From contig CM000207.1 in the NCBI GenBank assembly GCA_000002445.1, forward strand, positions 2,176,001 to 2,240,000: a stretch of 64,000 nt of DNA, given 5' to 3'. The translations under genes were made by a program, and so were the position numbers. Of this stretch, positions 39,600 to 64,000 are shown piece by piece (positions within the stretch are counted from its first letter, which is position 1; every line of letters starts with the position of its first letter). This DNA comes from Trypanosoma brucei. Lineage: Eukaryota. Under the pieces are notes generated by a model, which worked only from the letters and a program-made list of their open reading frames with translations, had not been told where the DNA came from and did not search any database.

Positions 39600-39674
39600 T
39601 TGATTCATCGCTTAGCTCTATTATTAAAAAAGAAAAAGCATTTCCTCAACACTCAGCACCTCAAGGAATCGGAA

Positions 39675-42600
39675 ATGGGAACTATAATGTCAGGAAACCA
39701 AGGAAGAAAGCGACAGCGCATCTCATCTCCTGAGCAGTCAGAAGCTTTAAAGGAACCATCAACTACTGAACAAAATAAACTCACCACCGTTACAATCACC
39801 GAAGAGACGCGTGACGCCAGTAATGATGAAACTGTGGTATCGTTACTGAATGAGCATGAGAAATTGACTAAACAAACGACACGGCTGGAAAGCAGTGTGA
39901 AGGCACTTAAGTGTTTCATGAGTAATCTCACAGCTATGAGTGGCGAAAGGCGAGGTGGTGTGTGTGATGACACCGAATGCATACGCGCGGTAACGTTATA
40001 TAATGCTGCTGATAATGCCTTCAGTGACGAAGGACTACATGAAGGTGCTCTTTCCTCACTCTGTGGCCGCATTCAAGCTAAGAAATTAACCATTGCGCTA
40101 TCAAAGGGTTGGAAATTTAACTCACAACGAGTCAGTAAGCTAAAGCAGTTAGAAGAGTTACGCATTGAATATCCGCGTGGCAAACCTGTGAATATGATAT
40201 CTTTGAAGAGACTGCACATGTTGAAAAGGCTTTATCTTAAGAGCAACAATGTTGACAACAATGGCGCTCGTCACTTATTCAATATTGGAACATTGGAGGA
40301 GTTGGTTATTGCTGACACCATGCAACTGACAAATATCAGAGGAATCTCTCGCTTGACTAACCTGATGTGTCTTGAGTTAAATTCCACAGATATTGATGAC
40401 AACTGTGTGGAGGAAATAAGTGCATGTGCTAAACTGTCCAAACTGAGTGTATCCGAATGCAACAATATCACGGATGCAACCCCAATTTCACAACTTGCAG
40501 CGCTTGAAGAGTTGAATCTAAACAGCTGTTACCACATAACGAAGGGAATAGGAACACTGGCCAGGTTGTTACGATTGCGTATGCTGGACTTGAGTAGTGT
40601 TCCTGTGGAAGATAATTGTCTGAAGGATTTGTGTGACTGTGGGTCTCTTGAAAAGCTGAACCTTTCTTATTGTATTCAGCTGACAGATATCAATCCACTC
40701 TCCAATGCCGCTGCTGTTGAGGAATTGAACCTTAACGGTTGTCGCCGAATAACGCGGGGGATGGGCGTTGTGTGGGTATTACCAAAGCTACGCGTATTGC
40801 ACATGAAGGACATGCACCTGAGCGAGCCATCTCTCGATTCAGTTGGGACTGGTGGATTACTTGTAAAGGTCAGTCTTGATAACTGCGCAGGCTTTGGTGA
40901 TATGACACTCTTATCCAGCATTGTTACACTCGAGGAGCTGAATATTCAAAAATGTGCTGACATCATTAGTGGTGTGGGTTGCCTTGGTACACTGCCATAC
41001 CTGCGTGTACTTAACATAAAGGAGGCACACATCTCGTCCCTTGACTTTACTGGTATTTGTGCCTCAAAATCCCTTTTACAGCTCAATATGGAGAGTATCA
41101 CGGGACTGAGTAATGTGGAAGCACTCGCCAACATTTTGACTCTGGAAAAACTAAGCCTTCACGGCTGCACGGGTATTGACGCAGGAATTGGATGTCTCGG
41201 AAACCCGCCACAGCTTAAAATGTTGGACCTGTCTGGCACAAATACCGACAATGAGTCTCTCAGAAGTTTATGCCTATCGCAGACAATGGTGTCCCTCAAC
41301 CTTTCCCATTGTTGGAAAATGACAAATGTGTCCCATATTTCAAGCCTCGAAGCATTGAATGAACTGAATCTGAGCAACTGTTTTGGAATAAATGCAGGAT
41401 GGGAAGCACTTGAAAAACTTCAGCAGCTACATGTGGCAATCCTCTCGAATACACATATTGCTGACGGAGACATATCCCATTTCAGCAAGTACCAAAACCT
41501 TGTTACGCTTGATCTTTCTTTCTGCGATAAGTTACTTGATGTTACAGCTCTCTCTAACATCACTACGCTTGAGGAGTTGAATCTTGATAGTTGTTCAAAC
41601 ATCAGAAAAGGGCTGAGCGTTCTTGGAGAGTTGCCACGGCTTTGTGTGTTGAACATAACGGGTGTGCACTTGAAAGATTCAGTTATTGGTTCACTAGGGA
41701 ATGGTAAATCACTTGTAAGGCTCAGTCTTGAGAATTGCAAAGGGTTTGGTGATGTCAAGACCCTCTTGAACCTTGTTACACTTGAGGAACTGAATCTCCA
41801 CTACTGTGACAAAGTAACCTCTGGAATGGGAACACTGGGCAGCCTACCGCAGCTTCGTGTACTGGATTTGGGACGGACACAAGCTGATAATAATTCCCTT
41901 GAGAATATCTGCACAAGCTCAATCCCACTTGTATCATTAAATCTTTCGCATTGCAAGAAAATAACATCTATTTCTGCAATAGCCTCCCTTACGGCATTGG
42001 AGGAACTCAACATTGACAACTGCTGTAATGTAACATCCGGTTGGAATGTATTTGGTACACTTCACCAACTGCGTGTCCGTACTGTCAAATACACGCATTA
42101 ATGATGAAAACATACGGCATGTTAGCGAGTGCAAGTCTTTGAATACACTCAACCTTGCGTTTTGCAAAGATATAACGAATATCACAGCACTTTCTAAAAT
42201 TACTATGCTGGAGGAGTTGAACCTTGATTGTTGCCCTAACATCATAAAAAGTATTGAAACTCTTGGAACGCTTCCCAAGGCACGTATCCTAAGCATGAGG
42301 GAATGTCAAATTGGAGACAGTGATGCACAACAATGTTCCATCCTTGGGAATAGTAAGTCACTTGTGAAACTGAATCTTGAGAGGTCAAGGGGGCGCATAT
42401 CTGTGAAAGTTCTGTCTAACGTTGCAACGTTGGAGGAATTGGTACTTGATCATTTACAGGAAGTATGTTGCATACCGTCATTTTCCTGTCTACCGCATCT
42501 TCGAGTACTGAATCTGAAATATACGGATATCAATGGTGATGTAACTAAAAATATTTCCGATTCGAAATCGCTGCAGTCACTCAACTTATCACATTGCAAA

Positions 42601-43872
42601 TGGGTAACTGATATATCAGTATTATCTTCCTTATCGACACTGGAAGAACTGAATATTAGCGAGTGTGAGCAAATACGAAAAGGCTGGGAGTCGCTCGGAA
42701 AGCTGCCTCTACTACGTGTGGCAATTCTATCTGATACTAAAATCACCGCTAAAGATATAGTTTGCCTTAGCAGTTGCAAAACACTTGTGAAACTAAAGTT
42801 TTTCCGGTGTGAGGAGTTGTCAGATGTTACGGTGGTGTATAAAATTCAATCACTGGAGGAGCTGATAGTTAAGAACTGCTCAGACGGCCTCAAGGGACTG
42901 AATGCTCCTGGTACACTCCCACGGTTGCGTTTTTTTGCTTCTGCGAAATGTGAGAGGTAGTGATATATCTGTTGAATCTATCGGGACGAGCAAATCTCTC
43001 GTGAGGCTTACTATTGAAGTGGGCGAGGACTTAACAGACACAACACCCCTCTCAGATATCACATCCCTTGAGGAATTATCATTGCGGGAATGCGGTGATA
43101 ACCTGGGAGGAGTCGGGACACTTGAGAAACTGCCACGGCTTAAATCGCTGGATCTGGGTTTATCTGATATTAGCAATAGCACACTTAATGATATTTGTCT
43201 GTCTCGATCCATTACGTCACTCAACCTATCCAACAATTATGAACTAACAGACATATCTCATATATCAAACCTTACGGCACTGGAGGAATTGAATCTGAGA
43301 GGATGTTACCACATAACTTCAGGCTGGGAAGCACTTAGCGAATTACCACGACTTCGTGTGCTCAACTTGGTATCCGTCAGAGTTACGACGCGTTACGATG
43401 GATATTATATCAGCAGATGCAAATCCCTCGTCACACTCAACCTTGAATCGTGTGATATGACCGATGCTTCATGTCTTGCTAATATCAAGACACTGGAGGA
43501 GTTGCATATAGGGAAATGCGAGATGTAACGCAGGGGTTTAGTGCACTTTTCACTCTTCCGAGGTTACGCATTCTTGACCTGATTATGTCGCGCATTACAG
43601 ATGAAGATCTCATGGAAATGCAGCTATCCCATACCATTGAGGAGCTCAATCTCTCTTATTGTGAAAATCTTAATGATATTACACCACTTGGGAGAATAAA
43701 ATCTATTAAAAACTTACATTTCCTTTTGAGCTATGATGCCAGAAGGCTCAGAGAAGAAGGATTCAGAAGTCTTTTGGAATTGCCATGTCTTTCTTGGGTG
43801 GGGGTCAAAAATGCTTATGTCAGTTCCGATATCCTGCGTGAACTGAGAAAAAGGAGGTTACATATCCATTAA
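39675..43872 (+). pseudogene. Leucine-rich repeat protein (LRRP, ESAG8-related LRR family without RING) of about 1,400 codons, disrupted by three frameshifts
   Basis: Four consecutive overlapping ORFs (39600-42101, 42046-42960, 42902-43528, 43516-43872) all carry the same roughly 24-aa LRR (L..L..LEELNL..C..IT.G...L..LP.LRVL.L). The repeat phase continues across each junction only after a frame change: a 4-bp insertion near 42075, a T7 homopolymer at 42930-42936, and a 1-bp change near 43522. Start placed at ATG 39675 (MGTIMSG). Confidence 0.7.
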
Positions 43873-45965
43873 TATGTGGTCCATTATTTCGTGTTGTATT
43901 ATTGTAACAACTTATTGCTGAGAATACGTTATTAAATTAAACATCCAGTTCGAGTGGTTCGCTCACTGTAGGCACTATTACTCAAACAGATACCAGTAAC
44001 AATTCATATGGATGATATTGTATGTTACACTATCTTAATTACGAGAAATACGAGGATCTCATTACAGTTATTTGAGTGCTTCGTATTTTTGCAAGTTATA
44101 TCCATCATATATTGTGTAAAGAACAGTTAGGAAGGTGTGCGTGTGCGTGCGACAAGCTTTTTATTCAATGGCACTTTGTATTATGGCTATCGGTGTAGTG
44201 ATGATTATATTACGCTCATTCATTATTACAACCATGCTAAATGAATATCTCATTTCTTGTATGTCCTTCTGTCTTTACAGCCGCATACTCTCACCCAAAT
44301 ATCGAACGAAATATTACTGTTATTATTATTAATATTATTGTTATATGAGACACAGCATTCATTGTTAATTTTCACCCATAGCCACACCTGAAAAGTAAAA
44401 GCACTCAACATTCTACAGTACTGTTTGCCTGTCAATGATATGAGGAGGTGAAGTTTATATACCATTAAAGTATAGTGAATATATTTCATTACTGTTATTA
44501 TTATTTGTTTTACTGAAAGAAATGACAGAGTGACTTTAAATTATATCAGAGCAGCATCTTGACCACCAATTTGCTACACAGGAAAGGATAATACAACACA
44601 TTACGTGTCTCGTGATTCTTTTTTACACTTGCCACTGGTATATCTATATTCTCAAACAGTGCAATTGAATCCCCTTGTTTCAATTAAAATATTTTAACTT
44701 TTTGTATTTATTTTTGTAATTACATAATTTATTTTATTGCATTTTCTTTTAGAATCATTTGAACCAATTATTTTTGAAGAAGTGATACATTCTGAAGCCC
44801 CCTTCGCAACGAAGGGGAATGATGAAACAAAAATCGGAAACTCTGGCTTCTCACACACATTATATTCTGGTAAACTCACACTCCGTTTTTATCTTATATT
44901 GTTTTTTTTATCCTTCATATACAATGTGACAAACTTAAAAATTTAAAGGAAGTTTGCTTGTGTCCTCACTCACATCTTGTTGATATGTGCAACATGACAA
45001 TCAAAATATTTCAACATATTAAATTATTCTTAGCGTTTCCGTTATATTTAATTGCCCGCCTTTTCGCTGTCAGTGCAAATAAGGTAGATTTTGACGTTTC
45101 GCTTCTAGTTAGGAGTTAGTTTGTATCATGTTAATGTTATGAAGCGAAGTGGGACAGTTACCATGTTGGAAGGAAGAATGGGTAGATTCCAACTGTAACG
45201 GCGGAGGGTTGCACGCAAAAGCTTCCGTGAGTTCAGTGGAATTTTATTGTTTCTTTTTTGGGAGCGGCGAGTGTCGGTTTTATTCGCATAAGCTCCAGAA
45301 AATGGAAGCAGCTAACAATTCGAAGGAAACCATAGTCACAACGTCCCGTGTGTTGCATGCTACGATCAGGATGGGAAACAAGTGAAATGGGACATTTGCA
45401 CCTTCACAAACGAAAAGATGTGCCAATAGCTTGCTATTATATACAGTGCTGAAGGCTTTTGCAGAAACTGACCTGGTGCTGGCACAATAACATAGACACG
45501 CAGCGTAATGTGCTGGGCCTCTTTGTGTTATGTGCGTTATTCCTGCTTGTGTATTATCAACCTCAATAGTATGCGTGGTGGTGGTTAATAGGTTGATAAC
45601 GTGATAAACTTAGATTGTGGTTCATGAGGCCATCAGAGGCACATATTGGTATGGGAAGTATTCGATTCTCATTCGAACGCATTTAGATCACTCTCCTCAA
45701 CACTAATGTATATGATTCCTGTTCTCTTTTTCTTCCCTTTTATATTTTGTACAGAAACAACCGTATGTATATTAATATAAGGTATCCTATGACTTACCTT
45801 CCTGTACAGTGTGAAGTTAAAAGGGGTGGGAAATTGATATGCCAACTTTTGTTGTGACTATCATATCCATCCTTTGTATCGTTAAGGGAAGGGTATTGTT
45901 GGTAAATGCGAGTCCTCAATTGTATGGAAGTAAATTTACTGACCATAAGGAAGGTACTGGAAGTA

Positions 45966-45991
45966 CCCCTAACCCTAACCCTAACCCCCCC
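45966..45991. repeat. Interstitial telomere-like repeat: (CCCTAA)3 followed by C7
   Basis: ccctaaccctaaccctaaccccccc read directly. TTAGGG is the trypanosome telomeric hexamer. Confidence 0.75.
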
Positions 45992-47716
45992 ACAGAGGCG
46001 GTGACAGTTGGGTTGGGTGGGCGTTTTAAAAACTCACTCTTTGCGACGCTTCTCTTAAGCGTGATATGGAAACAAGAATTATGATGGTTATTTCATCTCA
46101 CCTGACAATGAGTAAAGGTTTGGCCATTCCTTTCGTAGGCCCCCGGAAAAAAAAAATGTTCATCTATACATGTTACGGGTGTGGGAAACTGCAACAGTGC
46201 GAGATAGCTTCACTTGTAACAGTGCGTCACTTTATTCCCTATGTGCAATCCGAAACTAGGGAATCTCCTCGTTCCCATTAAACTTAGACTCACAACCCCT
46301 CTGAAGTAAGGAGAGAACATACCGAGAAAAGAAAAGACATTTGGAATAAAATGGAAATTGGCAATGGAATCACATGAACGACAAAGCACAAGGGAAATAT
46401 TAGTGAAGTCCTCATGTCCGCGGAGGGGAATATGTGATCGAATGCAGCTGCGTGAATAAAGTAAGGGAGAAAAAATGTGCAAAGCGAAAAGAAATAGAGG
46501 ATGGTAAATGTGAAACGAAAGCAATGGTGAAGAACTAAGAACCGAAGTAGTGAAAGATGCGTAAAGCAATAAATTGATATCAAAATATTTGTGTAGGGTG
46601 CTCTTTGAAGTTGATGGTGTTCTCTTACACAGCATCTTGGATTGTTTTTACGTAACCGAATGAACATACAAACCTACTAACACACTTTGGAAAATGATGA
46701 AACTGGGGGTTGAGTTGTGAGGGAGTGGCACTCCATAACCTGTAAGACAATAGGAAGAAGGGGCATTATTTGGGGAACACGCACCGACACAAAAGTGCTG
46801 TGAAGACGCGAGGCAGTACTTACAGTAACTCTGAACAACCATTTGCCTATTTAACTTAAATATTACAATTTGGGTCTGACTCAAGAATAAATGAGGCTAA
46901 ATAGTGAATGTGCACGTTTCCATTGAGAAGGGTGTATTCATGAAACCACATATTAATATGGTGAAGACGTGGTTGCGGACGCTACTGAGCAGACGACGCG
47001 ATGAAAAGCGCAATGGGAAAGGTTGCTTATGTAATTTCCCTATTATACAACGCATACATCTCATTAGTTGTGACATTGTATTGATCATGGTTTTCAGATA
47101 TTGTCGTGAATACCACCAAGCCTTGTTTATTTTTTCACTGTATCTTTTTCTGTTACAGATTTTTGAATCATAGCGGTATCTTGTGAAACACCGAAGAACA
47201 TCAAAAATAATTTTATTGGTTGATGTTCGTAGAATTCAGAGCAGAGCTGCTAGAGAACAGTAGGAAACATATAAAAGATGGGTGTATCTGTTTCTACTTT
47301 CAACTCTGATTGCAGCCCTACTCTGTAAAACCGAACGTACACCAAACAATATCTTTCATTTCACCTGCCCCTGCTTCAGCCAGCATGCGTTTAAAATGAC
47401 ACATGTCCAATACTGCGTTGGGAAGAGTTAGGGAACTATCAGGCGTATATTTTTGTGCTGAAAGAGGAAATAAAACAGACTGATTGAAGCGATGTGTGGT
47501 ACAGGACTAGTTATTACGCCATGCTTCAGAGTAATCGACCTTTCCTTTTTTATTTTCTCACTGGTGACACAAATAAATACAAATCACCAATCAAACTATT
47601 CATCTTACTGAATGACTCAACGTTTGTCACCTCTCCATTTACTCTCACGACGCTACTTAAAAAAAAAACAACAAGAATTTTACCAGGATTAAAAAAAGTA
47701 AAGTTTATCATCCCCA

Positions 47717-49549
47717 ATGGTGTGGAAGGGTCAAGCCAAGGGAAAACAACAAAATAACGGAAAGAATATTCTGAAGGGAAAACGGAGACTGTTGGCGACA
47801 GGACCTCAACAGGAGCCAGAAGTAAACACTCCAACGGTCAACGCAAACAGTAACGTAATGAAATCACTTCGTAAGCGAGATCGACCGACGGAAGAACTGC
47901 AGCAGGTGGGGGACGTTTCTGTAGGGGCAACCGAAGCTTCCAGTGTCCTCAATAATGCTGAAAGGGAAAGGAAGGATACAAGTGCCGCAGACGGTGATAC
48001 AACTCATCCTAATTTATTGAGCGATGGCCAGGAGGTTTCACTCAAAGGCACCAAAGTTGATAAAAATACCTTGCAACCGCTCCAAGCATCTGTTACCCTA
48101 CGGAAACTGAGTGTTACGGTGAAGGAGGAAGATGTCGATGTGCAGCAGCTGACCTCACTGAAAATGCTAAAGGATTTGTGTATCGAATACGTGAGCGGTA
48201 AAATACTGAACGTGACTTCTCTGAAGGAATTGTCCCATATGGAAAGGCTTTGTTTCAAAGGAAGTTGCATTGAGGAATTGGAGGAACTTACGTTGAATGG
48301 ATGCGAAGAGCTGAAAAAAATTGAGGGGATACACCTTCTGCCGAACCTCACGATTCTCAACTTGGGGAGGACATCAACAAATGACGATTTCTTGAAGGAA
48401 CTTTCCGTATGCAAGAAACTATCAAAGTTGACACTATCTGGGTGCCCAGGATTGGAGAATGTCGAACAGCTGTCAAATTTTGCAACACTAAAGGAGTTGA
48501 GTCTTTCATGGTGCAGTAATATTATACATGGGTGGGAAGGCATTGGCCAACTTCCACAGCTCCGAGTTCTTCATTTGGAAGGGAACAAAATCACTAACAG
48601 AACACTTGAGCCAATCTCGAAGTCGAAGTCACTTGTATCACTAGATGTCTCCTTCTGTGAGAAATTAACTGACGCCACTCCACTCTGCCGTGTTAAAACT
48701 CTGGAAGAGCTGAATCTTCACGCCACTAAAATAACTTCTGGTATCGACAATCTGGTACTACTCCCGCGACTCCGTGTGCTGGATGTGAGGCAATTACAAC
48801 TCAGCGCCTTCGATACCATTCTCAGTACTTTTGCTGCCGTACGTTATGGCATTCGTCTTTCTTCATTTTGCAACGGTTTCGATATCCAATCTATTTCTTC
48901 CATTCAAACGCTTGAGGAATTGAGTGTGGGGGGGTTTTTCTGCGCCGCAATCCAATTCGGCAGTATTGGGGGACTTCCACGCCTTCGAGTACTAAGGTTA
49001 TCGAGCAAAACGATGTTTGACGAGTCACTTAAAGGAATAAGTCACTCGCGCTCATTGGTGGCATTTGATCTCTCAGGGTGCTCCTGCCTCGAAGACATTT
49101 CCTCTATATCAGGAATAAAGACATTGGAAGCGTTGAGTCTTAGAGATTGTACGAATGTATCAGATGGTTGGATTGCACTTGGGGAGTTACCACTGCTGCG
49201 CATCCTTGATCTATCATGTACGAAAATTCAAGATGTGATGCTTCGAGTGTTGTTCCCTAAGTTGAAACTAGACTGTCTGAGTCTTGCTGGATGCGAAAAC
49301 ATAACTCATATAGGGCCTTTAATTAACGTAAAATCACTCAAAAATTTGGTGCTGGAGGAATGTTCCGAGCTGAAAGCGGGGTTTGAGGCACTACTGGAGC
49401 TGCCCTTGCTCACATGGGTCGATCTATGCTATGTTAACGACAACAAAACGGTGAAAGACACATTGGTTGCGAGAGGGGTGGATATGAGAAGTGTATGGTC
49501 TATCATTGGAAATTGTACCTCATTATTTGATTGGTGGAGAGCTAAATAA
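47717..49549 (+). CDS. Leucine-rich repeat protein (LRRP family), 610 aa, intact
   Basis: Uninterrupted ORF with the same cysteine-containing roughly 24-aa LRR as the upstream LRRP (LEELNL..T.I..G...L.LLPRLRVLDL). N-terminal basic region. Confidence 0.75.
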   Translation: MVWKGQAKGKQQNNGKNILKGKRRLLATGPQQEPEVNTPTVNANSNVMKSLRKRDRPTEELQQVGDVSVGATEASSVLNNAERERKDTSAADGDTTHPNLLSDGQEVSLKGTKVDKNTLQPLQASVTLRKLSVTVKEEDVDVQQLTSLKMLKDLCIEYVSGKILNVTSLKELSHMERLCFKGSCIEELEELTLNGCEELKKIEGIHLLPNLTILNLGRTSTNDDFLKELSVCKKLSKLTLSGCPGLENVEQLSNFATLKELSLSWCSNIIHGWEGIGQLPQLRVLHLEGNKITNRTLEPISKSKSLVSLDVSFCEKLTDATPLCRVKTLEELNLHATKITSGIDNLVLLPRLRVLDVRQLQLSAFDTILSTFAAVRYGIRLSSFCNGFDIQSISSIQTLEELSVGGFFCAAIQFGSIGGLPRLRVLRLSSKTMFDESLKGISHSRSLVAFDLSGCSCLEDISSISGIKTLEALSLRDCTNVSDGWIALGELPLLRILDLSCTKIQDVMLRVLFPKLKLDCLSLAGCENITHIGPLINVKSLKNLVLEECSELKAGFEALLELPLLTWVDLCYVNDNKTVKDTLVARGVDMRSVWSIIGNCTSLFDWWRAK

Positions 49550-51348
49550 TCTATCATATGAGGTTTCAGGAGAACATCACTTCTGCCGCATCGTTAGAAT
49601 TAGGGCACCTAATCAAGTGATGGGTGAATCCAGGGGCACGCAGCGTCATGCGCAACATATCAATATTAGCAATGAAAGTGACGCCGATATCTGTGGTTAA
49701 GAAGCGTGGCACACTGCATGTTTCCCTTTTCAGAAAATAGTAAAATATCATCCCTATCATACGAGTGAGAACATGACGGGAATATCTCTTTCCGAAAAAT
49801 AAATATTCAACCCCCTCATCTAATTTTTTCATGATTCGTCCCTATTCGTAATATGACCCTGCAGAAGCAGGAATACATTAACGCAACACGTTTTGGGGCC
49901 TTTATTTTTCAAAAGCTCATGGCTACGCTCTCTGCATACGTTATTTACCTAAGTATATGTTATTTTGTCTGTATTTTACTGGAGCCCACTGCTACTTCAA
50001 AGGGCGCAGTTACACTAACCCCTTGCACAGCAAAGTGGTGTGTACCGTATTAACTCAACAACATCCATATCAAATATACACGAGTGTGTAGTAACGCTCT
50101 ATTGGTTTTGGGAACTATTATTTTATTTCTTACAATATGATGCCTCAGAGAAACTGAAGGCGAGGGCAGATCCTTTAATCCATCATATTTTCCGTTTTAT
50201 ATCGTATCCATATATGTTTATGACTTTCCCGTAGGTAGTTCCAAGGTACATTATGTATTCTTTCATTTAAAGAATCATTCCTTTCTTTCATATTTGCTTC
50301 TTATTTGACAACAATGAGCAAAAGGTTTTTCTCTCTGACGTTTACATTAATTTAGACACTGCTGTTAGCTGATAAGTTACAGAAAGCCGTACATTTAAAG
50401 TTACACGAACTCACACCGGTCCGAAATAGTAAAGTCTCTAGTATTATTACTTGTTTCTTTATTTGAGAAAAATACGAAAAGCAGCGTCGTGTCTGAAGTG
50501 AGAAACATGTGGCATACATGTGAGATCGGAGGACCACTGCCATTTGAATATCATATCCCAAAATTCTTTTGCTAACATTATTAACTCTGAATGCCTACGA
50601 GATTGTGAAGTGAGCGACCACTGACAGTGAAAACACGAGGATGTATTGTTATCGCCCATGAAAGACACTAGCGCTATTTTGCTTATTGAAAAGCAGAAGC
50701 TCTTTATAATGCCTTTAATCGGCTTGACACAGCAGGTATCACATTTGAAGGAGCAATGAACAAACCGTTACCACACGGAGATATTTTCGTTTACTGATCA
50801 AAAGGTACTCCCGCGACGCATTATTTTTGGTTTACACAACAAGAAGTGCTGTGGCATATGCAACTACTTACTTTTTGCGAGGTTATGTGAGTATATTTTG
50901 GTGACGTATGTAATTTCAATCCGCAGCTGATGTTGCAATGCAGTAATTATCAATGAGGTCTGTCAAGTGGATTCCAAATGGTGAAGCTGTGAGTGAGGAC
51001 GAAGGACTTATTGTCTGCCTCTGAACCGTACACTGCCAAGCACAATTGAATTAGTTTATCATACGACTTTGAAGAATTGCACAAAGTTTCTGGAGCGCAC
51101 TGGAGGCCTCAAGACATTAGCTCTCACGCCTGAAATGAACCGACCCTACTTAAGGTTTAACGGTACGAAACATAATGACATCCTCATGTGGACAGAGGAC
51201 TGGAGAGAGTGGAATGTCTCGAGAAGAGGGCTCTGTACTTGACAGACCCAATGGGATGGAAGAATGGAGGCCGAGCCAGGCCCCTACATTGCGATTGGGA
51301 GCTCTGGTATAGGTAAGTTGCTATCCATTGGTTCGCTTCTCCTTCATA

Positions 51349-51595
51349 CTCTGGCCACGCTGGCCACCTCAACGTGGTGTCAGAGTCCAGTACCCCGTAT
51401 CATCGGGGGAAGCCGAGAGCCAGCAGCGTTCTTCTCATGGGGAACATTGCTGTGCTCCGTCTATGGCATCATACAGCACAGGGATCAGCAGCGTCTTGCT
51501 GGGAAACCGTTTTTCATTTGTCGGTCCCTGGGCACGTGCCATCAGCAGTATCACCCGCACTAACATACTGCTCTGCGGTAATGTAGAGGAGATTT
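51349..51595 (+). mobile_element. 5' half of a RIME/ingi-type retroposon (about 250 bp). No ingi ORF follows, so truncated or degenerate (DIRE-like).
   Basis: CTCTGGCCACGCTGGCCACCTCAACGTGGTGTCAGAGTCCAGTACCCCGTATCATCGGGGGAAGCC... aligns with the 5' half of the RIME at 37226-37729 for about 250 bp, then diverges. The ORFs at 51264-51624 are translation artefacts of this element. Confidence 0.55.
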
Positions 51596-54565
51596 GCGGG
51601 CCGCCGTTATGCGTGACGGGGTGAAACTACGGTGGGTTCTCACTGGGAAAAACTTTGTCCACTGGATATCGCTGTATGGTTATCTGTTCGTGAGTTTTTC
51701 TTAGCTATAACCGATTTTCTCGGCGGCAGCTGACCGATAATGCGGATGTACAATGCTTGAGATAAATTGTTTGATGGAAGGGACATTTAGTAACTAGATG
51801 TGATATCACAGCGAATTTTCGTTTTTTTCGATATCACCCACTGAACGGGTCCCTTGAATTGCTAATGGTGAGCAACGTTGAACTATCGAATAGCACGGCA
51901 TCGGTCATGTAAATGGGTTGAGGAGAAAGTGCTTCATCGTGCGCACGGGAAAACGCAACCATGTTATTTGGCGTTCGTTGCAACTGATGCTTTCGGTATC
52001 TGGAGAGTAAACCTGATGGATAGGCAGCTGCCCTCCGGGAAGAATGATTGTGGCGGAATTCCCGCTGACTTACCACTTTGTAGAAAGAGTGCCCCAAGAA
52101 GGAAGTTTTTTCCTTATCACGCGCATTCAACTGAAGTAACTGTCAGCGTAGACTGGGTATAGAGTGACCTGAAGCCCCGGGCAATGGCAGTGCGCAATGG
52201 TTCTTTTCCAGGTAAGACATTAGACAAGATTTTTTATCAGACGCAAACGAGGCTACGGTAACCTCCACCGGAGCCACGTACCCCCAGCTGAAATGAACAC
52301 GAACACAAATCCTCCACCATGCCCGAATGGCAGGCACGAAGGCGGTGCGATTTCCGACGTACACATCGAACCGTCTTCGTGCCTACCATTCGGCGCGGTG
52401 GGTGGAGACGGGAGTTCGACCGTTGCGAGACGCATTTAGATGTGTAGAAGCTGTTGCCTTTTCCAGTGGCAGAGTTACCAGAGGGCATGGCTTTCGCTTA
52501 AGCAAGTATTCAGTCCGCCTTTTAGGGGTTCCAATCGCTTGGTATGGCGCGGTCGCTGGGGTAAGTGAGGACAGCATGGGGACAGAAGTTTCTTCCTCAA
52601 GCTTCGCTCCAAGTAGCCCCACATAGTTATGGTCCTCGGCACCTCGTTGCGTTTGGGACGCCACAAAAGTGGGGTAATGAGGAGCATGGAAGAGCGACAC
52701 GCTGATAGTTTTGGAGTTCGGCAGTGGGTTTCCAGCATCCAAACACCACTCGTGAGGAAGGCAAAAGGGGTAGCTACTGCGACGCTAAGCTGGAGGTTAT
52801 GTTGTCAACATTGACCACCGGAACGTTGAAGTGCGAGGCTGCAACACCCGATGACGAAGAAGAAATGCGCATACCCCAAACGTGCGGAACGCCTCTTCTT
52901 CCCTACACCGTGGTCGGATGCGAGTCGCTTGCCTTAGGGGCCTTCGCAGACTTTTTTGCGACATATCATCTGCGTTGAGAAATAGTGGTGCGCGAGCGGA
53001 TGAAAGGAGTGCGAGCCCAAGTACGGAAACAGTGTCATTGAGCGCGGGTTTTACACTAGCTGGCATCCTAAAGGAGGGCTCCTACGTACCTGGTTAAGCT
53101 AGCCTATGATGAATGTATACGAAAAAAGTTAATGCTTTACTGTGTGGAAGTTCCTCCCTTTTGTAACCGTTGCATCGCTCCGCTCCACCACCCTTTTGTT
53201 GTGCGCGTCCGTGTCAAAACCTGTTTAGCAATGACTACATCCACTCAGCGCCTGAGTGGTGAGGGGCTCTGACTGCAAGCGACCAAGCAATCGAATCCAA
53301 CTGTTTGCCATTAGGCAATACAACGTGATTAATCATCTGTGATTGGTGACCAGTGGTAGGGTGCCGTCATTTTCCTTCTTTAGGCGGTCTCAAGTACACG
53401 CTTAGTGATTCGGCTGCCAGCAACATTGTTAGAACCTCTTTTTAGAGTCGGTGTTCCCATTCCAAAAAGCGTGGCGTGGCAGCTAGCGTGTACGATGCCC
53501 CGCTTACTCCCGTGGAACTGGGAGTACAAACGGGCATTTATCTGCGGAGGGAAACAGGTATTGTCATCAGAATAGCAATACCAACGGCTCTTCATTTGTG
53601 TCAACGGGTGCTGCCTAACCGGCACCTCTTCGTTATCGTCTACTGAAGCGTTCGCGTGGTTTCCTTTCCGGTGCAAAATTGATTTTAGTGACAGGAAGCG
53701 TTTTCCTTCTGAGACATCGGGAACCAAATCCCTATTAAGGCAAGGCGGCGCTGACAACAAGCGCGGCTAAAGTTGCAGTTGAGAACGTCTGCATGAAGAA
53801 GGGCTGCGAGTGCACAGTGGTTCCACGCTCGGCAACGGCGATTTATGAGCCGCGCGGACGCCCAGGCGATTCATCAAGTATATCGCAACTATTTGGGGCA
53901 CCTCTAACCCCAGCGAAAAGGCAACTAAAGCTCCGCTGTTTACACAACCGAGCCTAAACGTCGGTCACCCACCACAGATTAGTAATACCCCACCGAAAGA
54001 AGCTGACAGTAACTTCAAATATAAGATATCTTCTTAGGGGTGTCTCTCCCTGTCTTACTTTCTCCCTGTTTATAGGTTTTCATCCGTTAGGTGGTTGGTT
54101 AGAGTGAAATACACGTATTTCCTGTGGACGACGCCTGGCCGTTGGTGCCGTTCCAGTTTGGTTGTGGATGCATACGAGTACTTCCGCTCGCCCGTACATA
54201 TTTTTCTAGTAATAACCGAATGACTATGCTCCGCCAATCTGTCGTTGTCGGATTGATCCTGTTACCTCCCGCGAAGTAGCGGATTGTGGGGAGCAAACAG
54301 AAGAAACAGGCACCGATGTTGTGCATGACGATGATTTGTGATGAGCGCCACTGACCGTTTGTTTCTCCGCAAAAACGACGAATACGATATCGTTTTGTTG
54401 GAATCGAAATCTGCTTTTGGGGACGTGGATACCAGAGATCTGACGTTGACAAACCTTACCAGTGGTAGGAGAGTGTCTAAACTATCGGTAAACAGGTAAA
54501 AGCCAGACATCATGCTGCATGCAAAAAAAAAAATCCCTACGTAGTCACTAGAGCGGCACGGGATC

Positions 54566-55181
54566 CGTTTTATATCTCCTTTTAATACTTTTTGACGTAA
54601 AATGAGACACCTTTCCCTTAACTCGATGAGGGGAAGCTTATTGCGAAAGAGGAAGAAAACTTTGAGACTCTAATAACACAGAAAAGTCAACACTTAATGA
54701 GTATCTGAGGGACGAGTAATAGTCGAAAAAAGATTTTTTTGCTTTGCTTTATTCACATGATTCCCCCCTCAAAAAAAAATAATACCTTATTCAGGGACTT
54801 GGTACTTGCTTGCAATTTAATTTAAGTATTTTGTTTGTTCTTAGCGACTTATCCCGTAAGGGAAGACGCTACTTCAAGTTGGGTGCTCCACACGAATTCC
54901 GAAACGCTAACACAGTGTCGGCAAACTGCGGCAGTTTGTGCATTTCGTTGGAAGAGAGGAAATTCGTCAAAGTTTTAACACCTTGATTGTGCGCGTGAAA
55001 GAGTCGTTGCGAGGGGGAAAATACGGTATCCCCACACACACACCAAAAAACAGTAAGGAAAAAAAAAAAAGAAACATCCCATAAAACATTCTTTTTCTCT
55101 TTCTTACAACTCAAAGTAGACACAGAGCATTTGTCAAAGACATATTCAAACAAGCTAGCATACGATTTCTGCTCTGGAGGG
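54566..55181 (+). repeat. Direct repeat copy 1 (about 615 bp) flanking the oxygenase gene
   Basis: About 98% identical to 57124-57735. Both copies end at CTCTGGAGGG and contain an A-run and CACACACACACC. Confidence 0.85.
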
Positions 55182-57123: not shown

Positions 57124-57735
57124 TTTTTATATCTCCTTTTAATACTTTTGACGTAAAATGAGACACCTTTCCCTTAACTCGATGAGGGGAAGCTTATTGC
57201 GAAAGAGGAAGAAAACTTTGAAACTCTAATAACACAGAAAAGTCAACACTTAATGAGTATCTGAGGGACGAGTAATAGTCGAAAAAAGATTTTTTTGCTT
57301 TGCTTTATTCACATGATTCCCCCCTCAAAAAAAATAATACCTTATTCAGGGACTTGGTACTTGCTTGCAATTTAATTTAAGTATTTTGTTTGTTCTTAGC
57401 GACTTATCCCGTAAGGGAAGACGCTACTTCAAGTTGGGTGCTCCACACGAATTCCGAAACGCTAACACAGTGTCGGCAAACTGCGGCAGTTTGTGCATTT
57501 CATTGGAAGAGAGGAAATTCGTCAAAGTTTTAACACCTTGATTGTGCGCGTGAAAGAGTCGTTGCGAGGGGGAAAATACGGTATCCCCACACACACACAC
57601 CAAAAAACAGTAAGGAAAAAAAAAGAAACATCCCATAAAACATTCTTTTTCTCTTTCTTACAACTCAAAGTAGACACAGAATATTTGTCAAAGACATATT
57701 CAAACAAGCTAGCATACGATTTCTGCTCTGGAGGG
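57124..57735 (+). repeat. Direct repeat copy 2 (about 612 bp)
   Basis: Near-identical to 54566-55181. Spacing of 2,558 bp suggests a remnant tandem gene-unit duplication. Confidence 0.85.
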
Positions 57736-60249
57736 ATTGTTACAGTTGTGCGGCGAAGGAGGGACGACGCCGTAGACTGAACTGTTGGCGGAAATGCACC
57801 GTTGGATTATTTGGGGTTGAAGAGGGCTCTACCGAAGTGTGACGGAGGAAAAAAGCTCACTCTGTTTCACACAGTTGTCGGGGAGCGTGCCCTGACGACG
57901 TCACACGGCGGGGGCAGAGACGGCGAAGGAATTTGCTGCTGCTTACTCATGGAAGGTGTGGCATGCATATGCTCGATAAGGGAGCTGTGCGAATAGCGGT
58001 AGGTCACAGCGCCTGCAGTTACAATTCGGGAGATTCCACAATACTTCTGCGTGGGCCGAACTGAAGATATTTTCTGACGACGCCGGTCACAAACGTGGCG
58101 TCACAGTTCCGCGCCGGTGGTGTGTGTGGGGCGCTGCGAACCAGCATATGGTTTAGTATATGAAACTGGATGGGCGGACAGCCGTCGAGCACCGGGGGGA
58201 AGGGGGGAGGGCGCTGCAGATTCATTAGTTCTCGAGTCGGCGAGTATCCATGTGCCCCGTTGTTGTCGACGGTGAAAGGTACCGCCAAAAGGAAAGAATG
58301 GTAATGTTTGAGGATTTGTAAGCTGAGGTTTGCACTTTGCATTTCAGGCACTGCAGTGGTACTCGCGGGTTGATATGTCGCGGCATTCATCCACTATGCC
58401 AGGAGGAAGCGATACGGAGGCTAGACAGCTCCGTTTCTTATTCGGGTGTTTTTCCTCTGATATTAATATTGATTCATGTGTGCTACAGTACCCGGAATCC
58501 TTGGGTCAGGAATCTGCAGCGTTTCAGTATCCCCTGTTGGTATAGATTCAGACGCTTCAGTCCATTACATTCCATTCCACCTCAGTAACTAAATGCAAAC
58601 TTCATCCTGGTACACACTTTCTCCCCTGTACTTGTGTGAGAAGCGCCCATAGCTTATTTGGTTGTTGGTCTGCTACGGTGAGATGGGTCTACTTCCGATG
58701 CCATGAAGGGAAACAGTGAGTCGGTGATTATCAAGAGTGTAGTCGATAAAGTTGCATACGCTGGGAGAGCATACAGTGTCATTTCCACATTAATTTCTAG
58801 TGCCATGGATTCTGTTGCCACTGCGTACTAATGGGGCTGCACGTGCCTACTCGACGACTATCAGTTTATTATTTTTGCATATTGTCGTAACGGCCCCATA
58901 TTTTCCTAACAATAGAAATCTCTTGGTCCATCATCCGTGGTACATGCGTGGGGTCATAAATTTGGTGAATGTCAGTGTCTGCATCTTTCGCGCATACAGT
59001 GGCTCCTAAATCCGCTCCACGGTCGGTATTCCACAGTGAGTGTATTAACGCGCTACCGCCTGCACAGTTGCAGGCTGTCCGGCGTCGGTAGCGGCTGCCA
59101 ACGCTGAGATATTCTACTTGCGCAATTGTTACTCTAGCCCAAACGTGGGCGCAGGGTATCACAATCACAGATGCGAGTGCTTCACAGAGCGGACCAGTGG
59201 TCTTTTCCTGTGGAACGTGGTTAAACTCCATTGATAACCCAGTGTTAGAACTTTTATGGGGCTCTTTACATGAGGGGACAGAAGTGTTTTTTTTTTTGTG
59301 CGGCCGATCATGGTACTATGCGTTCCTGAAAATCGGAAAATGCATAACGGTGTGTCGGAAAGACGCAACTATTCCCCGTGGAATATGGTATCCTTGGCGG
59401 AAAGCCCAAAACGGTTTTCTTCCAGAAATCGCTGCTGCTTGATGATACCCCCTTAACATTAGAGAATATGGAAATCATATGAAGATGTTCTTCTGATCGA
59501 CGTGGTGAGGTTGTGAAAGAGCGGTAAAACTTGTGTGGAAGTCTCAAAGCGAACGTGAATGCAGCAAAAGAAGTGGTGCGATTCACCACTCTTAGCCTTT
59601 GTGCAGGATGACGCATATCTTCCTGCTTCCTAGCTGTGCAACTCATGGAAGTGCTTTCCTCAGTGTGGAAGCTTATATACCTCTTGTGACAAGTCATAAA
59701 AAAAATTTAAAGTGAATCCTCAACAACAATTAAGAAAAAATAAAGCATTTATTTACACGGAGTGATTTGAAGACCAGTATCATGCACACTGTGTGTCGTC
59801 GAGGGTAAATAACCAATTTAAAAGATTCGCGCCGCGTTCGGTTTCCTCGTAACATTTATCACCCCCCAGCACGTAATGACATTTCTCAGGAACGGGGCTC
59901 ATTACGTCCCTTCCAGCTTTATAAGCAACTACGTTTCATTACCGATAACATTATCCCAAGGGGAGAGCCACCAACAATAAGAGCTTATCCACACAAAAAG
60001 TGAACAAAGATTACCTACGCAACACCGCGTCCCATGGGCTGTTAACAAGCCCTGTTCTCTACCACCATCATGCACAAAGGGCATCATTCACTATCATCCC
60101 TAACTTACCTAGGGTAGGAGCGCTCCTTCGGTATTCCTCCGCCCACCTCGATACAGCGTAAATTCACTACCCCCTCAAACCAAACTTCTGCAACAACACA
60201 CTCTACATTTCTCCTACAACCTCATGATTAGATTCATGCCTTTGCATGT

Positions 60250-60261
60250 TAAAAAAAAAAA
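60250..60261 (+). other. A12 tract, probable 3' poly(A) of a retroposed or retroelement-derived insertion abutting the SL gene fragment
   Basis: aaaaaaaaaaaa immediately followed by SL exon nucleotides 15-39. Confidence 0.5.
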
Positions 60262-60306
60262 TTAGAACAGTTTCTGTACTATATTGGTATGAGAAGCTCC
60301 CAGTAG
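60262..60306 (+). pseudogene. SL RNA: Spliced-leader (SL) RNA gene fragment: mini-exon nt 15-39 plus the first 20 nt of the SL intron. Truncated at both ends.
   Basis: TTAGAACAGTTTCTGTACTATATTG|GTATGAGAAGCTCCCAGTAG matches the T. brucei SL 3' portion and splice-donor/intron start exactly. The first 14 nt (AACTAACGCTATTA) are replaced by poly(A). Similarity stops after intron nt 20. Confidence 0.7.
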
Positions 60307-60688
60307 GAATTATCCGTACTTGGGGTCAATATTCGGGAAGAGGAAGAAGTAAGAAATCGCTGCATTTATGATATCGATAGGAAAGGAAGGAAAACCTCAA
60401 AACCAAAAAAAGTCTTGTTTTGGGGGTTCGAACCCGGACCTCCAAAACACAAACACAATTAGAAGAGGAGTGTTGCCAGTTGGGCTATTTCGACAAATCG
60501 GAGGAAAAATTGAAAATTTATGCCCAGATGAAATATACCAAATCGTACACATCGAAGAGAAAAAACATAGGTGTACAAACGGTGCACACGTAGAAAAAAG
60601 TAGCGGAATTGATAAATCTCAGGTAAATAAGCCCATTACAGAAATCAGGTGATCAGTTTCTTTCTTGGGACAGAATATCGGGAGGTTT

Positions 60689-63600
60689 GATGTCAAAAAG
60701 TCACCCGAAAATGAATATTTGGAAAAAATCAACTGTGGTCAAATCGACATAACGACCACAAAAAATTGTCGCTACGAAGACTTCCGTAGCGCATTTGAAA
60801 GGGCTCGACCAGCCCAATGCATGAGTAACAACGGTTACTGCAACAAAGAGGTCGCCAAAAAATTAGGTGCAGTCGAACCTAATATTTTTTCAAAAAATGG
60901 AAATTTTGAAAAAATTAACCGTGGTCAAATCGACATGACGACCACAAAAAATTGTCGCTACGAAGACTTCCGTAGCGCATTTGAAAGGGCTCGACCAGCC
61001 CAATGCATGAGTAACAACGGTTACTGCAACAAAGAGGTCATAAGAAAAATAGGGGCGGTTGGAAAAGAAAAATGCTCAAAAAATAAGGAAAAAGAGCAAA
61101 TTTCGCAGGCCGACAAAAATGATACACATGGTTTCTACGCAGACTTCCGTAGCGCATTTACACGGAATGGACGAGTAGAATTAGGCAATAACAACGGTTA
61201 TTGTCATAACGAAGCGACAAGAAATATAGAGAGGGGGAAAAAGCCGAAAACATCAAAAATTGATGAAAAAAGGCAAATTTCCAACATTGCAGCTGGTCGA
61301 AAAAGTGATCACTACGAAGATCCGAGTAGTGCATTTTCACGAATTTCAATAGACCATTGCAATGCTCAAATAAAAATTGGTCGCAAAAAAATGGTTAGAA
61401 ACTTGAGGTCATCTGAATCTCAAAAAATTTCAAGGTTCCCAAGGCACCATGGGGAAGGAAAAAAGGTGTCTCCTCCGGCTTTGAACCTGCAGTGGCCAGG
61501 ACAGAAGCAGGTAGCGTCGGCAGTTGCGCCACAAATTAGAAAAATCGCGACACCGAAAAACAACAACACAAGCATCCAACGGAACTGTAGGAAACACCTT
61601 AGGAAAGAAGGTGATTGGTGGATAGTAGAGGGCGGGCAAAGCCACAAGAAAGCCGCCCATACCCCTCTCAAAACGAAACCGGTAAATAAGGAGGGGAACC
61701 GGAAGAAGTACGGCAGACCACCGCGTGAGGTAGAAGGGAAATGGCTTACCTCCCTCATTGCGGCAACGACTGAGGCCGTATTACGCCAACTGGGGAAAGG
61801 AAAATCCCCAACAGCCCACACGAAGTCGAACCAGAGTAGAGTCCCGCTGCAGCACTCTGAGAAAACGGCTAAGGGCATCAAACACGCGACGCCCCAACCA
61901 AAAAAGAAAGAACATGAGCAGCGGAAAGAGCTCCCCCGTCGGCCCCCAACCAAGAGGAGCCACGGCGCTAACAAAGGGCAGGGAGCACCAGTAAGAGCCC
62001 CTACGAAGACACAAGGGAAGGGGGAAGAACAACCCCACACAATGCGAACATGGGCACAGGTGGCAGCACCGAGGAAACCAAAGGTGACAAGTAAACCACC
62101 CATGGCTCAAAAAAAGGCACAGGGGGAAAAGAAAGGGGCAGCGGCCAACCCCTTCCACTGGGAGCTACAGGTGGAGCAGCTTCTCAAGGATGCGGAACAG
62201 ATACGCGAAAGCATGTACATCCGCTTTCTCCACGTTCGGCAGAGTTGGTGGAGCACATGCTTCAAGGCCCACATGGAGTTCCACTGCCCAGTGTGTGGTT
62301 TCGCGCACCCGGAAGAAACCATAACAGTAACACACTGCAGGCAGCAACACCCCCAGGAGGGCCGCCTGATTCCCTACACCCTGACAACAACAGGGAATCA
62401 GGTGCAGTTCGCAGGTCCCTCCTGCTCACTTTCGGCGGTGGTGGCTATCCTCTCACATATGGAGGAAGAGAAAAATTTCCACCCTATTATCCGCCGAAGC
62501 TACCAGTCCCCGAGCAAGGAGACTACCCAAACGCTCGTTCAGGCATTGGGACTGGAGCTCCCCACAGCCCCCATCACTGCGATAGAAGCGCTGGCCCACC
62601 ATGACCAGATGATCCGCCAGCTGTTGGAGGCACCCGCAACGACGGCACGACAATGCGGGCATTGTGGGGTAAGTGAGCTAATGGAAGGGCCTTCCAACCC
62701 CGGGGAAAATTTGGGGATAATCTCCATAAACCCCAACACATGCGAGTCGATCGAGCTGACGAATCAGATCCTCGCGAAGACATATACGACCTCCTGGACA
62801 GATATGGAGGTCGTATGCACGGGGGAACGGAAGAATATGGCCCACCGGCCTACCCCGACGTTGATCACCCACTCCAAGACGTTCGGGGAAATGGTGGTCA
62901 TCGATATTGGAACGTGGGGGAACGAAGCGGTGGGTTTGAAACGCATCCTCCACGAGATCCTGTTACCCCACGGGAACGGCACGGCAACATACAAACTCGT
63001 GGGCGCCGTGATCGCACCAACACCGTTCCACGTGGTAGCGGCAATACCTCAACAGACCAGGAAACGTCGCTGGGATATCCTGGATGGTATGGTCCGCCGC
63101 ACCGTGAGCCAGAGCACTGTCGACCCAAAAACTGTGGTCATGTGCGTGTACCGTCGTGAAGAAGAAGAAACATACGACGTACTAGACGAGGAGGAGCAAG
63201 ACGACGACCTCCTCGGTATCCCCAACCCCACGCCACGGCGATTGATGATATCACAAGCCGGTCCACAGCAAAACTCATGGGTGGACACACGGGGCAGGAG
63301 GGCATACGGCTCACAGGAGGAACAGGATGAGAGGACATCGACAGATCAGGTGAGTATTTTCTCCCACGACGAAACACGGGAGTTATCATCACCACTGGAG
63401 TGTCCTATCGTAGGATGCACCGCGAGTTTCGTGGGCCCACGCAGATGGGAGAAGGCCAAATCCCATATATACGGGTTCCACTCGCTGGAAGAGGTCCGCG
63501 AAATCCCGAGGGGGGAGCTTATATGTAAGGGGATAGTAAGATGCGAGACTTGTGCCACGCTCCTCCCTACGTCGGACAGAGCGAAACAGGCACACGCCGA

Positions 63601-64000
63601 CGATTGCAGACCCTATCTCCCGCGGAAAGAAAACATCCGCCGAAAACGGGCCGCTGAAAGAGAAGCGACAGAGGCGAGCGCACAGCAAGGAATAGCGCTA
63701 CGCCTCGAGCGGCAGGGCCCGTACATAACTCCCCGCGACATAGAGGAGCCCACCAACACGACGACGGAAAGTTGGTGGAGGGAGAAGGTAGCTACGAAAC
63801 GCTACCTTCACAGAAAGGAGTGGCCGCAGTGGCTTGACATCTGCCGCACGGTCCTCCTCGGATACTCCGCGTCATCACAAGGCGAGCGGCACCAACGCCA
63901 AGTGATGCTCCTTGATCTGGTCCGGAATCATCTCCACACGCGCACAGCCAGGCGCGAGCAACAGCAGCAACGTGGAAAGGATAACCAGGAAGAGGAGGAC
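60689..64000 (+). CDS. Partial (3' end beyond window) long ORF. N-terminal tandem repeats of about 57 aa, a K/R/P-rich basic linker, and a C-terminal region with C2H2-like Cys/His motifs. Candidate retroelement (SLACS/CRE-clade-like) or novel zinc-finger protein.
   Basis: I walked frame 2 by hand from a stop at 60650-60652 to the window end (64000) without meeting a stop, giving at least 1,116 codons. The ORF track does not list it because it has no terminating stop inside the window. Motifs: FHCPVCGFAHPEETITVTHCRQQH, ECPIVGCTASFVGPRRWEKAKSHIYGFH, ICKGIVRCETCATLLPTSDRAKQAHADDC. The coding strand is strongly purine-rich and T-poor. Confidence 0.45.
60721..61380 (+). repeat. Tandem repeat array with a unit of about 172 bp: two near-perfect copies and two degenerate partial copies
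   Basis: GTGGTCAAATCGACAT(A/G)ACGACCACAAAAAATTGTCGCTACGAAGACTTCCGTAGCGCATTTGAAAGGGCTCGACCAGCCCAATGCATGAGTAACAACGGTTACTGCAACAAAGAGGTC occurs at 60737 and 60909. Diverged copies at about 61130 and 61304. Confidence 0.85.

Follow-up and report, generated by a model that had tools for sequence, protein, structure and literature searches.

The question raised by this locus is what is encoded by a long open frame that runs off the 3' end of a 64,000-nucleotide stretch of Trypanosoma brucei chromosome 9 (contig CM000207.1, positions 2,176,001 to 2,240,000 of the forward strand). This whole stretch is called the window below, and all positions are counted from its first letter. A first-pass annotation of the letters had read the frame as a site-specific retrotransposon without long terminal repeats (non-LTR) of the SLACS/CRE clade, and had left room for an undescribed relative or a domesticated derivative. 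The former reading was borne out and the latter was not. The region 60307-64000 is almost certainly the 5' 3.7 kb of SLACS, the retrotransposon of T. brucei that is specific for spliced leader (SL) RNA genes. This very high confidence belongs to the explanation as a whole, that is, to the identity, the layout, the mechanism of the family, the inference of a protease and the state of this copy. The element is already known and is not new; it has reportedly been known since 1987, from the work of Aksoy et al. in 1987 and 1990. As a flagged locus it therefore matters little, since SLACS is long known and this very copy is annotated in the sister genome DAL972. The additions made here, which we deem modest, are a single-frame layout, a USP-like protease domain and a junction that has lost its promoter.

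The identification is carried by protein and DNA comparison, in which the search against SLACS proteins proposed by the first-pass annotation gave near-identity. The published ORF1 of SLACS (UniProt P15593, or P0021, "Retrotransposable element SLACS 45 kDa protein, ORF1") is 94% identical over 322 amino acid residues and aligns from the ATG at 61391. The DAL972 protein annotated as "SLACS retrotransposable element (part)" (P0001) is 91% identical over 442 residues, and a T. equiperdum protein (P0012) is 99% identical. At the DNA level the identity is 97.3% to the SLACS copy of DAL972 and 97.5-98.3% to three copies on a T. equiperdum contig (L002). P15593 was found by an exhaustive search with residues 492-896 of the frame; a word-indexed homology search with 61403-64000 returned a single match and missed both P15593 and the T. 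equiperdum protein. The figures for published SLACS were taken from UniProt-derived sequences and later papers. Zinc fingers 2 and 3, the segment that precedes the reverse transcriptase (RT) and the RT itself also have counterparts in relatives from T. cruzi, T. vivax, T. melophagium and L. panamensis, and CZAR-like and other CRE-clade relatives match the part that adjoins the RT on its 5' side. SLACS is 6.8 kb long, is found in SL genes only and is transcribed from position +1 of the SL gene that it interrupts, and siRNAs come from its 5' half alone (PMC3447711). The features of the window copy are collected in Table 1.

Table 1. Features of the SLACS copy at the 3' end of the window.
Feature	Position	Strand	Remark
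A11 tract directly 5' of SL fragment	60251..60261	+	resembles SLACS 3' junction, element missing
SL RNA gene fragment, about nt 15-59, the 5' copy of a target duplication of about 48 bp	60262..60306	+	identical (100%) to six SL genes in the DAL972 array
SLACS unique 5' leader, begins GAATTATCCGTACTTGGGG	60307..60707	+	aligns collinearly with the 5' ends of the L001 and L002 copies of SLACS
Long open frame	60653..64000	+	1116 codons without a stop, continues past window edge
Repeat unit 1	60708-60893	+	186 bp, 87% alike to unit 2
Repeat unit 2	60894-61079	+	186 bp
Repeat unit 3, decayed	61080-61256	+	177 bp
Repeat unit 4, decayed	61257-61433	+	177 bp
ATG (MVRNL...), published SLACS ORF1 start	61391..61393	+	P15593 alignment begins here
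K/R/P-rich basic region, 245 residues (35 K, 20 R, 24 P)	61391..62125	+	composition
A7 homopolymer governing the frame relation of the upstream and downstream parts	62109..62115	+	copy comparison
Zinc finger 1, canonical C2H2, C-x2-C-x12-H-x4-H, residues 545-566	62285..62350	+	weak Pfam zf-C2H2_ZNF462_11, E = 0.025; conserved in relatives
C5 run, point where published ORF1 departs from window frame	62350..62354	+	P15593 alignment
USP-type (peptidase C19-like) cysteine protease domain, residues 585-845	62405..63187	+	predicted fold
Candidate catalytic Cys591	62423-62425	+	USP-like domain
CxxC zinc-ribbon remnant	62654-62665	+	USP-like domain
Candidate catalytic His793	63029-63031	+	USP-like domain
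Candidate catalytic Asp811	63083-63085	+	USP-like domain
Zinc finger 2, C-x4-C-x15-H-x4-H, residues 917-943	63401..63481	+	conserved in T. cruzi P0008, T. vivax P0044 and P0019
Zinc finger 3, C2HC, C-x2-C-x13-H-x3-C, residues 964-985	63542..63607	+	conserved in T. cruzi, T. vivax and T. congolense relatives
Conserved pre-RT segment, WWREKVATKRYLHRKEWPQWLDICRTVLLGYSAS...LVRNHL	63773..63934	+	37-49% identity to T. cruzi and T. vivax CRE-clade proteins

A Pfam search of the window frame gave sub-threshold zinc-finger matches only, and neither an RT nor an apurinic/apyrimidinic (AP) endonuclease domain was found in the visible part, as the first-pass annotation had stated. Its proposal that the frame be extended in the 3' direction was followed in closely related copies. 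The DAL972 frame goes on for 159 codons past the end of the window into AAPGLDGWTRELL and LRKPNGKYRPIGAESVW, the first RT motifs, and then meets an assembly gap. The T. equiperdum contig holds three SLACS copies, of which copy 3 (98.3% identical to the window) is complete at the 3' end. Its frame extends 747 codons beyond the base that matches window position 64000 and contains an RVT_1 domain (Pfam, E = 9e-18) with YLDD inside FTAYLDDV, the CCHC motif CLCGEDASNHHIHTC, and the restriction-like endonuclease (RLE) motif RRPDILIAGLDTYAVTDITV, of the PD..D type (RRPDILI...D.T). All the checks that the first-pass annotation had proposed came out in favour of SLACS. Past the stop codon of copy 3 there are about 350 nucleotides (nt) of 3' untranslated region, an A11 tract and an SL gene from nt 12. 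The RT, CCHC and endonuclease evidence is by proxy, being seen in the T. equiperdum copy and, for the first RT motifs, in DAL972 as well, and not in the window copy's own DNA.

The frame itself is far beyond chance. The nearest in-frame stop on its 5' side is a TGA at 60650. With local T at 16%, a base-composition estimate gives one stop per 23 codons, so that the number of open codons observed has p ~4e-22, and in 500 shuffles the longest open stretch did not exceed 308 codons. The other five frames are closed in practice, as had been claimed, with 49 and 44 stops in the two plus frames and 25-31 in each of the three minus frames; the longest open stretches there are 170 codons on the plus and 229 on the minus strand. 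The frame was missing from the list of open reading frames solely because it runs off the window. The longest antisense open reading frame, of 227 residues (61420-62103, minus strand), lies opposite the basic region and most likely owes its existence to the purine-rich composition of the sense strand. For SLACS, however, antisense siRNA reads reportedly outnumber sense ones.

The tandem repeats at the 5' end had been put at about 172 bp, or 57 residues. The measured period is 186 bp, with a protein unit of 62 residues (TRF: 60708-61084, 2.0 copies, 88% matches; the repeat is also seen in a self-BLAST). This fits the 5' repeats of SLACS, which are about 185 bp long. There are four units, and units 3 and 4 are decayed, being 51-62% alike in the unit alignment. 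Each unit length is divisible by three, and the main frame meets no stop in any of the units. The number of units varies between copies, from 2 + 2 in the window to two more in the orthologous DAL972 copy. The DAL972 gene model (P0001) and copy 3 of T. equiperdum likewise have a continuous frame through the repeats. The order is an SL fragment belonging to a duplication of about 48 bp, a 400-bp leader, four units of 186 or 177 bp and a single long coding frame. The alternative of an undescribed or domesticated element had rested on the mis-measured repeat and on the continuous frame, and it is unsupported because the repeat is really 186 bp and the continuous frame is common to SLACS copies.

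Judged by the published protein, translation most likely starts at the ATG at 61391. From this point 298 residues precede finger 1, as compared with about 245-250 in the T. congolense protein P0042 and in the relative P0019. An alternative start at an in-frame ATG at 60821, 60935 or 61007 would turn the tandem units from a 5' untranslated leader into an N-terminal 62-residue repeat. For this speaks that all four units are open although one stop per 15 codons is expected (p ~2e-8, assuming independent positions). The lengths 186, 186, 177 and 177 point the same way, since the decayed units have kept the frame by being divisible by three, and the same openness is seen in the gene model of DAL972 and in copy 3 of T. 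equiperdum. However, the units are copies of one another, and their openness is therefore not independent evidence. The changes between units 1 and 2 fall at codon positions 1, 2 and 3 in numbers of 6, 7 and 11, with no clear third-position excess; the published ORF1 starts at 61391; P0042 and P0019 are without such repeats; and there are stops in the first units of T. equiperdum copy 3. Translation of the repeats is thus unlikely, and the start at 61391 is preferred.

From the ATG at 61391 onward the predicted order is a basic region, a C2H2 finger, the USP-like domain, an acidic linker and two further fingers, and past the window the RT, the CCHC motif and the restriction-like endonuclease. 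The K/R/P-rich tract noted earlier is indeed present, and this basic region probably binds nucleic acid. At least three Cys/His clusters had been noted too; there are three, and their spacings, given as C-x2-C-x14-H-x4-H or C-x4-C...H-x5-H, had to be corrected to those in Table 1.

SLACS has been drawn with two ORFs (PMC3447711). Most CRE elements have a single ORF according to a 2025 survey (PMC12278014). The published ORF1 follows the window frame across the A-run at 62109-62115 and finger 1 as far as ...HCRQQHP, and its last 82 residues are in another frame. The departure occurs at a run of five C residues, where none of the five compared copies (window, DAL972 and three of T. equiperdum) has an insertion or deletion. 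The split into ORF1 and ORF2 therefore looks private to the published sequence, the window copy and the four others being unsplit. The A-run is more variable: it is A7 in the window, which is in frame, A8 in DAL972, and A11, A11 and A12 in the three T. equiperdum copies, and the published ORF1 has one extra Lys here, in frame, which implies A10. These length differences may reflect assembly error, decay or a slippage-prone site. The DAL972 copy has a further +1 indel near 63507, and indels of a single base are numerous in the G-runs of the T. equiperdum copies, where they may have arisen in assembly. A single frame from the basic region through the protease domain to the RT is also found in P0042 (1006 residues) and P0019 (1123 residues).

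The variation between copies differs along the frame. In 61391-62108 there are 21 variants, of which 4 are synonymous where 23% would be expected at random, and the basic region thus appears to vary in a neutral-like way. In 62126-64000, 11 of the 19 variants are synonymous as compared with the same expectation, a pattern that indicates purifying selection on the element lineage. SLACS is better drawn as one long frame than as ORF1 and ORF2, in agreement with the 2025 survey of the CRE clade.

Between finger 1 and fingers 2 and 3 a USP fold is predicted within the SLACS frame. Residues 585-815 contain the motifs GPSCSLSAVVAIL, QCGHCG and YKLVGAVIAPTPFHVVAAI...WDILDG. The exhaustive search gave 25 relatives, including sequences from T. 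congolense, T. vivax and T. cruzi marinkellei, and single-frame relatives of 1461 and 1863 residues also carry RVT_1. Modelled from the single sequence, residues 492-896 gave an unusable AlphaFold2 result (pLDDT 33); with an alignment of 18 sequences the mean pLDDT was 77, and most 10-residue blocks of the domain were at about 80-95. When this model was compared with the PDB by Foldseek, each of the best 50 matches was a USP deubiquitinase, the lowest E being 8e-11. Across nine relatives there is no change at Cys591, Cys668, Cys671, Cys722, His793 or Trp807, and Asp or Asn occupies position 811. The spacing from His to Asp is 18 residues here and 17 in USP7. A profile search of the PDB with the untrimmed alignment was dominated by low-complexity matches; with the trimmed profile USP21 came first (E = 0.045), the Cys box falling on GNTCFLNAV and the CxxC on the zinc ribbon of USP21.

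The domain is termed a USP-like fold and not a member of a Pfam family because it lies below the Pfam UCH thresholds. The sequence identity to USP deubiquitinases and to coronavirus papain-like proteases is only 8-15%, and the second CxxC of the USP zinc ribbon has been lost in the Trypanosoma copies. It is possible, and we put it forward tentatively, as somewhat short of probable, that SLACS and its CRE-clade relatives encode a hitherto unrecognised USP-type cysteine protease with an intact Cys-His-Asp/Asn set, located after the first finger and ahead of the DNA-binding fingers. The Cys box stands shortly after the published break between ORF1 and ORF2. The private frameshift of the 1990 reference would leave this box in the tail of ORF1 that is out of frame, with the remainder of the domain in ORF2. 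This splitting of the domain, together with the failure of the Pfam profiles to detect it, might explain why it was overlooked. A limited search of the literature on ubiquitin proteases in SLACS, CRE and non-LTR elements gave nothing relevant, which does not by itself prove novelty, and no mention of such a domain was found in a 2025 mobilome paper. The domain would thus be a fresh point of the analysis, with no description found in the literature that was searched.

By analogy, the domain may cut the polyprotein or strip ubiquitin-like modifiers. If active, it would either split the polyprotein into a basic gag-like part and an RT/endonuclease part, in the manner of the coronavirus papain-like proteases that share the USP fold, or remove ubiquitin-like modifiers from proteins of the host or the element. 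It offers a testable idea for polyprotein processing or for the handling of host ubiquitin pathways. If true, this would be the second independent case, after the Ulp1 protease of NeSL, of an SL-targeting long interspersed element (LINE) with a protease of the ubiquitin family.

The place of the copy in the genome was established by comparison with DAL972. Window positions 48639-55181 and 57125-64000 are collinear with DAL972 chromosome 9 (FN554972.1, 1.9388-1.9606 Mb; locus L001), the contig on which P0001 is encoded, at 97.3-99.4% identity; over 48.6-61 kb the identity is 97.5-99.4%. There the SLACS copy is followed by an assembly gap and then by at least six SL RNA genes at a spacing of about 1.35 kb. 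Because the window is collinear with this region, in which SLACS precedes the SL gene repeats, it shows the upstream edge of the chromosome 9 SL RNA gene array, with the SLACS copy as the first element. Neither the window nor the SL array of DAL972 matched a spliced-leader RNA family of Rfam, and the SL identity is accordingly based on the known 39-nt SL sequence of T. brucei and on the 1.35-kb array.

The poly(A)/SL-gene junction described earlier is real, and its form is unusual. At a canonical 5' junction, as seen in L002, the SL promoter and SL nt 1-59 are followed by GAATTATCCGTACTTGGGG. At a canonical 3' junction, seen in T. equiperdum, GGGGCAGTT-A11 is followed by TTATTAGAAC, which is the SL gene from nt 12 onward; this pair of junctions implies a target duplication of about 48, or 48-49, bp. 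In the window, unrelated DNA reads ...GCATGTT-A11-TTAGAAC (SL nt 15-59) and then GAATTATCCG. The 5' end of the element abuts SL nt 59 and continues directly with GAATTATCC, as in the canonical T. equiperdum junction and in known SLACS. However, SL nt 1-14 and the SL promoter are absent and the A11 tract and unrelated sequence stand in their place. The same arrangement of A11 and SL fragment is present in DAL972.

The DNA on the 5' side of the A11 tract has no similarity to SLACS, as DNA or protein, or to the SL repeat unit; it was considered as a 5'-truncated SLACS or as SL-repeat spacer, and both were rejected on this ground. A C/A-rich stretch of about 450 bp (within 59700-60250) ends with ...GCATGTT at the A11 tract and has no similarity elsewhere in the window. 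A possible source is the 3' end of a different polyadenylated RNA, copied in trans. In T. equiperdum a like junction is found, with A11-12, SL nt 12-59 and SLACS in order (L002 ~14540-14610, minus strand), and is preceded by SL-repeat spacer that is cut about 300 bp past an SL gene.

For the odd junction we infer a second insertion attempt at the nt 11/12 site, within the 5' target copy of the resident SLACS, which would have left little beyond its poly(A) and would have been joined with loss of upstream DNA. The junctions in the window and in T. equiperdum together suggest that re-insertion into the target duplication, either abortive or in tandem, took place and that upstream DNA was deleted. 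This bears on the remodelling of SLACS arrays and of the edges of the SL locus. Since SL nt 1-14 and the SL promoter are missing, the window copy probably cannot be transcribed in the normal way, though no break in its frame is seen within the window.

The steps by which such an element would move are taken over from the family. Normal transcription of SLACS would begin at +1 of the interrupted SL gene. The SLACS protein would bind the SL gene by means of its fingers and nick it between SL nt 11 and 12, the point at which SLACS is inserted (PMC5814959). The polyadenylated SLACS RNA would then be copied into the nick through target-primed reverse transcription.

Several points weigh against this reading of the locus or limit it. 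For its RT and endonuclease, as for its stop codon and 3' junction, the window copy can be judged solely by orthologous or paralogous copies, since these parts lie beyond the window. Its DAL972 orthologue differs from it by two +1 frameshifts, so that the family may be decaying at this locus and the remainder of the window copy may not be intact. With the SL promoter absent, the activity of this copy is doubtful. The Pfam families UCH and UCH_1 gave no match for the window protein, the best of nine relatives having E = 0.018. Protease activity, self-cleavage and DNA binding are what we infer only.

The state of this copy also raises the idea that an immobile host gene was domesticated from SLACS, with an intact frame and no SL promoter, at a fixed site common to T. 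b. gambiense. It would agree with the presence of a copy at the same site in DAL972, with the loss of the SL promoter and SL nt 1-14 and with a frame intact over 1116 codons; the upstream genes at 39.6-56.5 kb also share its strand, which would allow read-through. However, the two frameshifts of the DAL972 copy are unexpected for a conserved host gene, the window copy is 98% identical to mobile copies inside SL arrays, and the synonymous excess was measured between element copies, so that it reflects selection on the element lineage and not on the locus. Domestication is for these reasons very improbable. Slighter still is the chance of a new CRE-clade family: the 172-bp repeat and continuous frame first reported, which differ from the 185-bp repeats and two-ORF layout ascribed to SLACS, and the single match of the initial homology search had favoured it, but the repeat period is 186 bp, the identity is 94% to the published ORF1 and 97-98% to the DNA of annotated SLACS copies, and the two-ORF layout stems from a frameshift private to the published sequence.

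It is useful to compare this SLACS copy with other elements of its kind. CZAR of T. cruzi and CRE1/CRE2 of Crithidia have the same target, the SL RNA gene. Identity to T. cruzi proteins annotated as "SLACS reverse transcriptase" is 37-49% over a stretch that takes in fingers 2 and 3, the pre-RT segment and the first part of the RT. The relative P0019, which is close to these T. cruzi proteins, has the same order of basic region, finger, USP-like domain, fingers and RT. However, CZAR and CRE are separate families, with 35-50% protein identity, and the 186-bp repeats are not seen in their proteins.

NeSL-1 of nematodes is likewise an SL-targeting LINE of the RLE type with a cysteine protease of the ubiquitin-like-modifier class upstream of the RT, which in NeSL-1 is Ulp1-like (PMC4640811). 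However, NeSL-1 belongs to another clade and its protease has the Ulp1/C48 fold and not the USP/C19 fold, so that the likeness is one of layout only; common descent of the two protease domains would find no support here. R2 is also an RLE-type, site-specific element with a single ORF, N-terminal fingers that bind the target and target-primed reverse transcription (PMC5678591), but its target is rDNA and it has neither the protease domain nor the 5' tandem repeats.

Some minor observations remain. The SLACS leader contains a tRNA-like remnant (60405-60505, minus strand) that combines a B-box-like GGTTCGAACCC with an A-box-like TAGCCCAACTGG and ends in a T7 run; neither ARAGORN nor Rfam called it, and its fold is no better than that of shuffled sequences. 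At about 11250 of the T. equiperdum contig L002 two SLACS copies stand head to head as an inverted pair, each truncated at the equivalent of window 63410-63525; the pair is either a true palindrome or a product of misassembly. In the remainder of the window, the plus strand carries a run of genes for leucine-rich-repeat proteins (833, 304 and 610 residues) at 39600-49549. Near 38 kb the long open reading frames change from the minus to the plus strand, in what looks like a divergent strand-switch region.

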